Shown: one piece after another, positions 27,710 through 27,836 of the stretch
Position numbering within the stretch: the stretch's first letter is position 1
How the letters are laid out: each line of letters begins with the position of its first letter
The notes under the pieces: model-generated
The model's input: the letters and a program-made list of their open reading frames with translations, nothing else
Databases searched by the model: none
What the model was told of the DNA's origin: nothing
Translations under genes and position numbers: made by a program
Source of the DNA: Escherichia phage phAPEC8
DNA length: 64,000 nucleotides
Strand: one strand, 5' to 3'
Sequence record: NC_020079.1

Positions 27710-27836
27710 AGTTGTTTTTAATGTAGCGTTGCGGCTACTTACTTTAGCAGAGTAAATCTTCGGCAAGTGGCGGTAACCACTTTACCGATACCGCATAGTC
27801 AGTAAGGCGAATACTGGCTACTTTAAAAACAATTTT

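Follow-up and report, generated by a model that had tools for sequence, protein, structure and literature searches.

We describe a structured RNA gene of 127 nucleotides (nt), hereafter the element, that lies between tRNA-Ser(GCT) and tRNA-Tyr(GTA) in a transfer RNA (tRNA) operon of Escherichia phage phAPEC8, and whose interior reads in sequence as the antisense of the 3' end of the plasmid abortive infection (Abi) gene ibfA/abi. The stretch of DNA that we analysed, referred to here as the window, comprises 64,000 nt of sequence record NC_020079.1, read on one strand from 5' to 3'. We consider it probable that the element is a captured antisense or antitoxin-mimic RNA, cut from a tRNA precursor, that pairs with ibfA messenger RNA (mRNA) and blocks Abi. 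The wider proposition, that unrelated lytic coliphages keep exchangeable, allele-matched antisense cassettes in their tRNA operons, captured from the 3' end of ColIb/IncF ibfA/abi and silencing ibfA, we put at about even chances.

The spacer between the two tRNA genes folds on the + strand with an energy of -40 kcal/mol (z = -3.8), a value equalled by 0 of 200 shuffles. Its dominant feature is P1, an A/U-rich stem of 18 base pairs (bp) that encloses the hairpins H1, H2 and H3, and the architecture is that of a four-way junction with its ends paired (Table 1). P1 is irregular at a single U-U mismatch (27722/27822) and at the pair G27711-U27833. A preliminary description, made from the sequence alone, had named three hairpins in the spacer, and all three are present, as H0, as H1 and, for the third, inside H2; P1 and H3 are additions to its list. 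H0 includes an 11-nt insert (27728-27738) that is present in some phage variants and in plasmids, and its GTAGC strand has a rival long-range partner in the GCTAC of 27817-27821, so that H0 competes with the top of P1. An alternative pairing joins TGCGG (27730-27734) to CCGCA (27791-27795); phage UAB_1 has TGAGG and CCTCA at these sites, a compensatory change. No second copy of the element was found within the window.

This structure is conserved among phages, and on one strand. We scored the model of P1, H1, H2 and H3 on an alignment of 20 distinct phage copies, equivalent to 810 pair cells. Pairing is kept in 97.2% of the cells, double-sided (compensatory) changes occur in 9 pairs and 37 cells, and not one of the five measures used for the model is attained in 500 column shuffles; when the partners are slid by 1-3 columns as a control, pairing falls to 40-56%. 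P1 covaries freely, with CG, AU, GC, UA and UG at one pair and UA, CG and UG at another, and what varies in both sequence and length among the copies is the loops and the linker between P1 and H1. Cells with G-U outnumber those with A-C by 76 to 3, and pairing stands at 97.2% on the + strand against 88.1% on the - strand, which argues that the structure has been selected in the + (tRNA-sense) RNA. A minus-strand RNA, despite its lower folding energy in a single sequence, was rejected because its G-U pairs turn into A-C mismatches. We conclude that the spacer is a structured non-coding RNA gene on the tRNA strand. The preliminary description had offered a non-coding RNA element as one of two possibilities, and this part is borne out by hairpins kept with compensatory changes across 166 phages, related and unrelated.

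The element falls outside the RNA families with which we compared it. The preliminary description had seen no tRNA fold in the spacer; ARAGORN is likewise blank for 27710-27836, and Rfam 15 gives no match in the spacer at E<=10, its tRNA, tmRNA and YrlA models included, and no relevant match in the homologous plasmid region. The element has no short tandem repeat of the ToxI type, its only duplication being a variant with two modules described below. T4-like records are absent from the 166 phage records matched by blastn, and none of the matched records carries an annotation of the element.

A search of the 127-nt spacer against 5,426 complete E. coli genomes returned 190 matches, 188 in plasmids and 2 in chromosomes, with 97.4% identity over 27722-27799 (E = 3e-28). 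The sequence is identical at 76 of 78 nt to plasmids of the ColIb-P9/IncI1 type, with the 71 bases of 27722-27792 uninterrupted, and no other plasmid-like piece or spacer was found in the tRNA region (26900-29700). The locus occurs in 460 PLSDB plasmids, ColIb-P9 itself (NC_002122) included, and 418 of the 460 are conjugative; a matching ibfA allele is present in about 3.5% of complete E. coli genomes, where conjugative plasmids of the IncI1 or IncF type carry it. In every plasmid locus fetched, the matched strand is the one opposite a 345-nt coding sequence annotated as 'abortive infection protein' or 'ibfA'. By its coordinates (NC_002122 13401-13745) this is ibfA of ColIb-P9, described as an inhibitor of the coliphages T5 and BF23 (PMC8004404). 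The phage RNA is the reverse complement of ibfA codons 98-114 (GIGKVVTATCRRFTLLK), of the stop codon, which corresponds to the first three bases of H1, and of 17 nt of the 3' untranslated region (3'UTR). H3 and the CCGCAAA loop have a recognisable, longer counterpart deeper in the ibfA open reading frame (ORF), and judged by eye no plasmid counterpart of P1 is evident. Full-length ibfA occurs in no phage of the 50,697-record collection, and a tblastn search of IbfA against phages recovers residues 96/97-114 only, on the strand opposite the tRNAs. The predicted duplex of the element with its cognate ibfA mRNA reaches -167 kcal/mol, compared with -63 +/- 6 when the element is shuffled and -79 to -130 when the allele is not the cognate one. 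By sequence and by predicted pairing, then, the element has long and near-perfect complementarity to ibfA/abi mRNA.

Different phages match different plasmid alleles. The ibfA alleles of plasmids diverge by up to about 25%, and we compared the phage variants with them over the 53-nt core of H1 and H2. The window, ESCO5, the rV5-like phages, UPEC06 and arall match the ColIb-P9 allele at 100%; Schickermooser, Mt1B1_P17, JLBYU50, tuntematon and EC.P2 match the IncFIA allele (L042) at 98%; and the IncF allele (L043) is matched by Eos (98%), 05F01 (96%) and HildyBeyeler (94%). Allele type is independent of phage genus, with at least two types each in Phapecoctavirus, Justusliebigvirus and the T5-like phages. 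The upper stem and loop of H2 are specific to the allele, and the loop is the most specific part of all (CGGUAA, CCCCCA, UGGCAG or CUGCAA); compensatory changes in the H2 stem also occur among the plasmid alleles, where they alter residues of the IbfA tail (V/M, T/I). A Justusliebigvirus-like contig from IMG/VR (L009) carries two tandem modules within one P1, the first nearest (87%) to a fourth allele (L044) and the second 100% identical to ColIb-P9.

The 166 phage records fall into three or four unrelated groups, with carriers in Phapecoctavirus and Justusliebigvirus (Stephanstirmvirinae), in the rV5-like Vequintavirus, in a subset of the T5-like Demerecviridae and in Klebsiella phage 05F01. 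HildyBeyeler, JohannJBalmer, EmilieFrey and PaulScherrer, all BASEL phages, are also carriers. The window itself, over 27400-28200, is 98.9% identical to Escherichia phage vB_EcoM_UP17, and its nearest taxonomically labelled relatives are Phapecoctavirus. In every context the element points the same way as the tRNAs or genes beside it, and in most it abuts the 5' end of a tRNA. The order is tRNA-Ser(GCT), element, tRNA-Tyr in the window (Phapecoctavirus); tRNA-Ser, element, tRNA-Lys, tRNA-Tyr in Justusliebigvirus; tRNA-Arg, element, 22 nt and an unannotated tRNA-Tyr in Vequintavirus; element, tRNA-Arg(ACG) in phage Eos; element, one ORF, tRNA-Tyr in UPEC06; and the annotated early promoter P14a, element, tRNA-Tyr in HildyBeyeler, Spc35, HMD-P5 and their relatives. 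The ORF of UPEC06 (Vequintavirinae; L033 785-1162) is annotated and encodes about 125 amino acids, and a terminator-like hairpin precedes the element there; the element is therefore separable from the tRNA. Pattern scans of IMG/VR, one with a 17-mer and one with a degenerate 14-base pattern, yielded nearly all chance matches, the real ones being just L006, L009 and L010.

Among the T5-like phages the site is polymorphic, the element being present in 25 of the 275 records that match the P14a/tRNA-Tyr region. T5, BF23 and ESCO30 have unrelated sequence, without the element, between the same promoter and tRNA-Tyr. This stretch is cassette-like, with three unrelated leaders in closely related T5-like phages (T5, L039 745-867; ESCO30, L038 about 345-408; HildyBeyeler, L001 1490-1618). 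The T5 leader, of about 100 nt and with hairpins of its own, has no match in E. coli genomes.

Table 1. Coordinates in the window of the element, its parts and the flanking features
Feature	Position	Strand	Remarks
Sigma-70 promoter-like site, TTGACA-18-TAGATT, TG	27491..27520	+	upstream of the element's tRNA run; consensus match alone
tRNA-Ser(GCT)	27624..27709	+	encoded CCA; 3' end adjoins the element; ARAGORN, Rfam
Whole element	27710..27836	+	127-nt structured RNA gene: closing stem P1 and hairpins H0/P2, H1, H2, H3
P1, 5' strand AGTTGTTTTTAATGTAGC	27710..27727	+	partner 27817-27834
Plasmid-identical segment	27722..27799	+	antisense to ibfA over its final 17 codons and stop codon, and over 17 nt at the start of the 3'UTR
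H0, GTAGC-GTTGCG-GCTAC	27723..27738	+	includes the 11-nt insert 27728-27738
H1, TTACTTT-AGC-AGAGTAA	27739..27755	+	invariant U-G pair; first bases TTA = complement of the ibfA stop codon
H2, TCGG/CCGA and AAGTGG/CCACTT, loop CGGTAA	27760..27788	+	loop and upper stem are the allele-specific part
H3, CAGTA-AGGCGAA-TACTG	27800..27816	+	5-bp stem, 7-nt loop; pair types CG/UG/UA and GC/AU/GU
P1, 3' strand GCTACTTTAAAAACAATT	27817..27834	+	followed by TT, then the tRNA-Tyr 5' end, the presumed RNase P site
tRNA-Tyr(GTA)	27837..27920	+	5' end 2 nt past P1; ARAGORN, Rfam

ARAGORN places 11 tRNA genes on the + strand of the window, spanning 27143-29148, and the ends of the two that flank the element fix the spacer exactly (Table 1). 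The next terminator-like site on the + strand past the promoter-like site lies at 29264-29282, which places the element within a polycistronic tRNA unit. ORFs that cross the spacer were discounted as spurious, since they extend through tRNA genes. At 29235-29289 (+) a weak Rfam match of the RyhB/MicA kind (29 bits, E = 0.016) was set aside as merely the terminator-like hairpin that closes the tRNA unit. A tRNA-like gene at 27529-27615 (+), which ARAGORN did not call and which scores 37.4 bits with the tRNA-Sec model of Rfam against a gathering score of 47, has UGA in its anticodon loop and is probably the tRNA-Ser(UGA) annotated upstream of tRNA-Ser(GCT) in related phages. The 90-nt gap between tRNA-Asn and tRNA-Thr (28013-28102, +) contains the T-arm-like sequence GGTATCGAATCCTGCC; at the apparently corresponding site just upstream of tRNA-Thr in an rV5-like phage (L002 2026-2124), ARAGORN reports a 'tRNA-???' with a 4-base anticodon (atcc), and an aberrant or frameshift-suppressor-like tRNA may be present.

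We infer the following course of events in an infected cell. The element would be transcribed as a small RNA gene together with the phage tRNAs of the operon, and would be released by the enzymes that mature tRNA ends, whose activities are well established: RNase P would act at the 5' end of the tRNA that follows, and the sequence behind the CCA of tRNA-Ser would be trimmed, giving an RNA of about 125 nt. Both ends of the released RNA would be locked in the 18 bp of P1, which should protect it. Its interior (H0, H1, H2 and, more loosely, H3) would have been captured from the DNA strand that lies opposite the 3' end of ibfA/abi, and pairing with ibfA mRNA would start from the hairpin loops, as in plasmid antisense RNAs. 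The duplex would lead to cleavage or translational silencing of the mRNA; IbfA would not be made in infection, and the infection would not be aborted. In doing so the RNA may mimic a plasmid-encoded cis-antisense RNA, akin to a type I antitoxin, that keeps ibfA silent. We favor capture of an antisense RNA because the phages hold only a short 3' fragment of the gene, always antisense and in highly expressed tRNA operons; because a covarying clamp stem has been added, the fold has been maintained, and different versions fit different alleles, on one occasion two together; and because T5 and BF23, historically sensitive to ColIb, lack the element.

Abortive infection of T5 and BF23 by ColIb has been known since the 1960s. 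The Abi conferred by ColIb abi/ibf is triggered by a pre-early phage product and ends in loss of membrane potential; the ibf/abi products are described as still unidentified, and the mechanism as 'yet to be determined' (PMC10644984). IbfA is 114 amino acids long, of which about 30 form a hydrophobic stretch; these features are conserved in all 7 alleles examined, and the protein matches no family in Pfam, NCBIfam or PADLOC. Just upstream of the start of the homology, all plasmid alleles examined carry an invariant TTGACA, a 17-nt spacer and TAnnnT, the -10 hexamers being TAGCGT, TAGCTT, TAGGTT and TATGTT, and the G-U bias in plasmid H1 and H2 favors the + strand, 11 to 2. These motifs suggest that the plasmids may encode their own cis-antisense RNA at ibfA, which would make the locus resemble a type I toxin-antitoxin system with a 3'-overlapping antitoxin. 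We regard this plasmid-antitoxin part of the proposal as weak; the trans-antisense mechanism proposed for the phage RNA is independent of it.

Two further features of the plasmid locus bear mention. Downstream of the ibfA stop codon, a flank of about 125 nt (L037 2890-3017) is conserved across alleles even where the neighbouring gene differs, and has hairpins with compensatory changes and the invariant sequence CTGTTGACATTC in a hairpin loop; this could serve ibfA as a terminator or as structure in its 3'UTR, it could hold an antisense promoter, or it could do both. A gene for a DUF4238 protein (L037 1841-2842, +, and equivalents), without a PADLOC match, is convergent to ibfA in most alleles; other genes replace it in two plasmids, and it is therefore probably not part of the ibfA module.

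Several observations weigh against silencing of ibfA by the element. The trigger of ColIb Abi in T5 is a pre-early product, whereas the tRNA region is expressed later, and an antisense RNA would be useful only where IbfA needs fresh synthesis after infection. ColIb Abi is documented for T5 and BF23 alone, and the carriers of the element are for the most part myoviruses of the rV5-like and phi92-like kinds. That the abi phenotype belongs to the ibfA ORF is taken from old genetics and annotation. The RNA is tightly folded, so that pairing must begin at its loops, and the variant of phage phiWec181 is without a close plasmid allele in PLSDB. As to an antisense RNA made by the plasmids, the promoter falls under the scan threshold with just 3-4 of 6 matches at -10, just 4 of the 7 plasmid alleles keep H1, folding in the plasmids is better on the - strand than on the + strand, and the overlapped 3' end of ibfA shows no excess of synonymous conservation when the 7 alleles are compared codon by codon.

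We weighed four other explanations. The element might be a structural spacer for processing of the tRNA precursor, P1 joining the 3' end of tRNA-Ser to the 5' end of tRNA-Tyr and perhaps aiding RNase III or RNase P, with no function of its own and with the plasmid similarity as a by-product of recombination. That it nearly always lies between tRNAs or immediately 5' of one agrees with this, as does the covarying P1 of 17-18 bp, and P1 and the abutting tRNA ends probably do set its excision. T5, ESCO30 and most T5-like phages nevertheless process the same tRNA-Tyr without the element, whose distance from the tRNA ranges in rV5-like phages and UPEC06 from 22 nt to about 460 nt, and processing accounts neither for matches of 96-100% to several ibfA alleles and the tandem double module nor for the 97% antisense identity and the tracking of alleles. 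We therefore think this explanation quite unlikely; tRNA processing, the other possibility raised in the preliminary description, is at best secondary. Very unlikely, in our judgment, is a role as sensor or trigger, in which pairing of the phage RNA with ibfA mRNA would activate IbfA synthesis rather than counter it. A sensor and its target would be expected to show the same complementarity and allele matching, and the 3' end of ibfA is among the most variable parts of the gene in the 7 alleles. Against this, T5 and BF23, which are aborted by ColIb, lack the element, and their trigger is a pre-early protein (PMC10644984). A dispensable suicide trigger should also be lost, and the element has instead been kept, its phage-specific P1 showing compensatory changes, and has been duplicated.

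A stable small RNA with another job (it might bind an RNA chaperone or a nuclease of the host or a plasmid, or serve as a tRNA-like decoy), for which the ibfA sequence was mere raw material, we hold to be unlikely. The four-way junction with paired ends and the 5-bp stem and 7-nt loop of H3 would suit such an RNA, and a precedent exists in the tRNA cluster of T4, whose stable RNAs are unexplained. Anti-defence tRNAs also adjoin the element (PMC11555353). The spacer gains no tRNA-like or Y-RNA-like Rfam score, however, and its loops vary freely and track plasmid alleles, as a fixed protein-binding motif would not. We give the least credence to a mobile element resembling a miniature inverted-repeat transposable element with terminal inverted repeats, or to a neutral recombination scar, either of which would have landed both among the tRNA genes of phages and where ibfA ends; this is highly improbable. 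Terminal inverted repeats are present, as are presence/absence polymorphism in T5-like phages and occurrence in several unrelated phage groups and in plasmids, but the repeats covary as an RNA helix does, with G-U on one strand only, and are not conserved as transposase sites would be. The junctions show no target-site duplication, whether in the window or in T5-like or rV5-like settings, and the repeats are missing from the plasmids, where the sequence belongs integrally to the ibfA ORF and keeps its length in 7 of 7 alleles. None of these alternatives explains allele matching together with the antisense-only orientation and the absence from T5 and BF23.

The captured antisense RNA that we propose has relatives among known systems. 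Blower et al. in 2012 reportedly described a pseudo-ToxI, or captured ToxI, of Pectobacterium phage PhiTE that acts against the ToxIN type III toxin-antitoxin Abi system. In both cases a lytic phage would escape an Abi toxin by means of an RNA derived from or imitating an RNA of the defence locus, the RNA would have arisen by recombination with a plasmid, and it would act as RNA, not as protein. ToxI, however, consists of a 36-nt repeat and acts by binding the toxin protein, whereas the element is complementary to the mRNA of the toxin gene, is clamped by a phage-specific stem, lies in a tRNA operon, and comes in several allele-matched versions in natural phages rather than in laboratory escape mutants. 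Convergent, 3'-overlapping antisense RNAs are also known from the type I pairs txpA/RatA and bsrG/SR4 of Bacillus subtilis. There a small hydrophobic membrane toxin has the 3' end of its mRNA covered by an antisense RNA of about 100-200 nt, and in the known systems the duplex leads to mRNA decay. The hydrophobic stretch of IbfA, and the collapse of membrane potential in ColIb Abi (PMC10644984), would be in keeping with such a toxin. Unlike those pairs, IbfA, at 114 amino acids, is larger than typical toxins, the element is encoded by a phage in trans, and a plasmid antisense RNA is suggested by TTGACA-17-TAnnnT alone.

The nearest functional comparison within the phages is with anti-defence tRNAs, among them T5-family tRNA-Tyr against PtuAB of Retron-Eco7 (PMC11555353) and T5 tRNA-Lys against PARIS and PrrC (PMC11464382). 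The element occupies the same genomic island and the same transcription units, and the purpose proposed for it is the same, namely an RNA that neutralises host or plasmid immunity; in T5-like carriers it stands between the strong tRNA-Tyr promoter and tRNA-Tyr. Anti-defence tRNAs replace cleaved host tRNAs, whereas the element is not a tRNA and would pair with a defence mRNA. The 'promoter-dependent' rescue from Retron-Eco7 made use of the region upstream of phage (SP15/T5) tRNA-Tyr (PMC11555353). In some T5-like phages the region upstream of tRNA-Tyr includes the element.

In size and in its setting in a tRNA cluster, the element is comparable by description with the stable RNAs C and D (species 1 and 2) of T4, which have about 120-140 nt, are co-transcribed with tRNAs and are cut from the precursor; we know of no target for them. 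In plasmid antisense systems it is the loops that set specificity. The element would resemble Inc RNA of ColIb-P9 and CopA of R1 as a stem-loop antisense RNA in which variation of a loop, here that of H2, tracks the target alleles; it would differ from them in that its target is the 3' end of a defence gene, not a replication leader, and in that a virus encodes it. RNA anti-CRISPRs, which are solitary CRISPR repeats borne by phages, are likewise non-coding RNAs copied from a defence locus and turned against the defence, but they are protein-sequestering mimics of CRISPR RNA repeats, not antisense to an mRNA. Counter-defence RNAs copied from a defence locus and anti-defence tRNAs in the same island are thus already known. 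What appears new is a clamped antisense RNA to an Abi gene in a tRNA operon, with natural allele-matched and tandem versions; the searchable literature yielded nothing on a phage RNA antisense to ibfA or to an Abi toxin gene, nor on an antisense RNA of pCol1B9 at ibfA.

If the proposal is true, these phages provide a natural case of a defence gene being neutralised by an antisense RNA copied from that same gene, and a possible reason for the presence of non-tRNA spacers in phage tRNA clusters. It would also give a handle on the mechanism of ColIb Abi, as RNA control of a small membrane toxin, and the 50-year-old ColIb Abi would become an RNA-controlled suicide module resembling a type I toxin-antitoxin system. 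ColIb Abi would become directly testable with phages and plasmids already at hand, such as the BASEL phages and ColIb-P9. Among the carriers are rV5-like, phi92-like and T5-like phages of the kinds used in phage therapy against E. coli and Salmonella, and since about 3.5% of complete E. coli genomes hold a matching ibfA allele, the RNA allele of a phage might predict its host range. We suggest that phages and plasmids would on this account be engaged in a sequence-specific RNA arms race, readable from the alleles of a loop.

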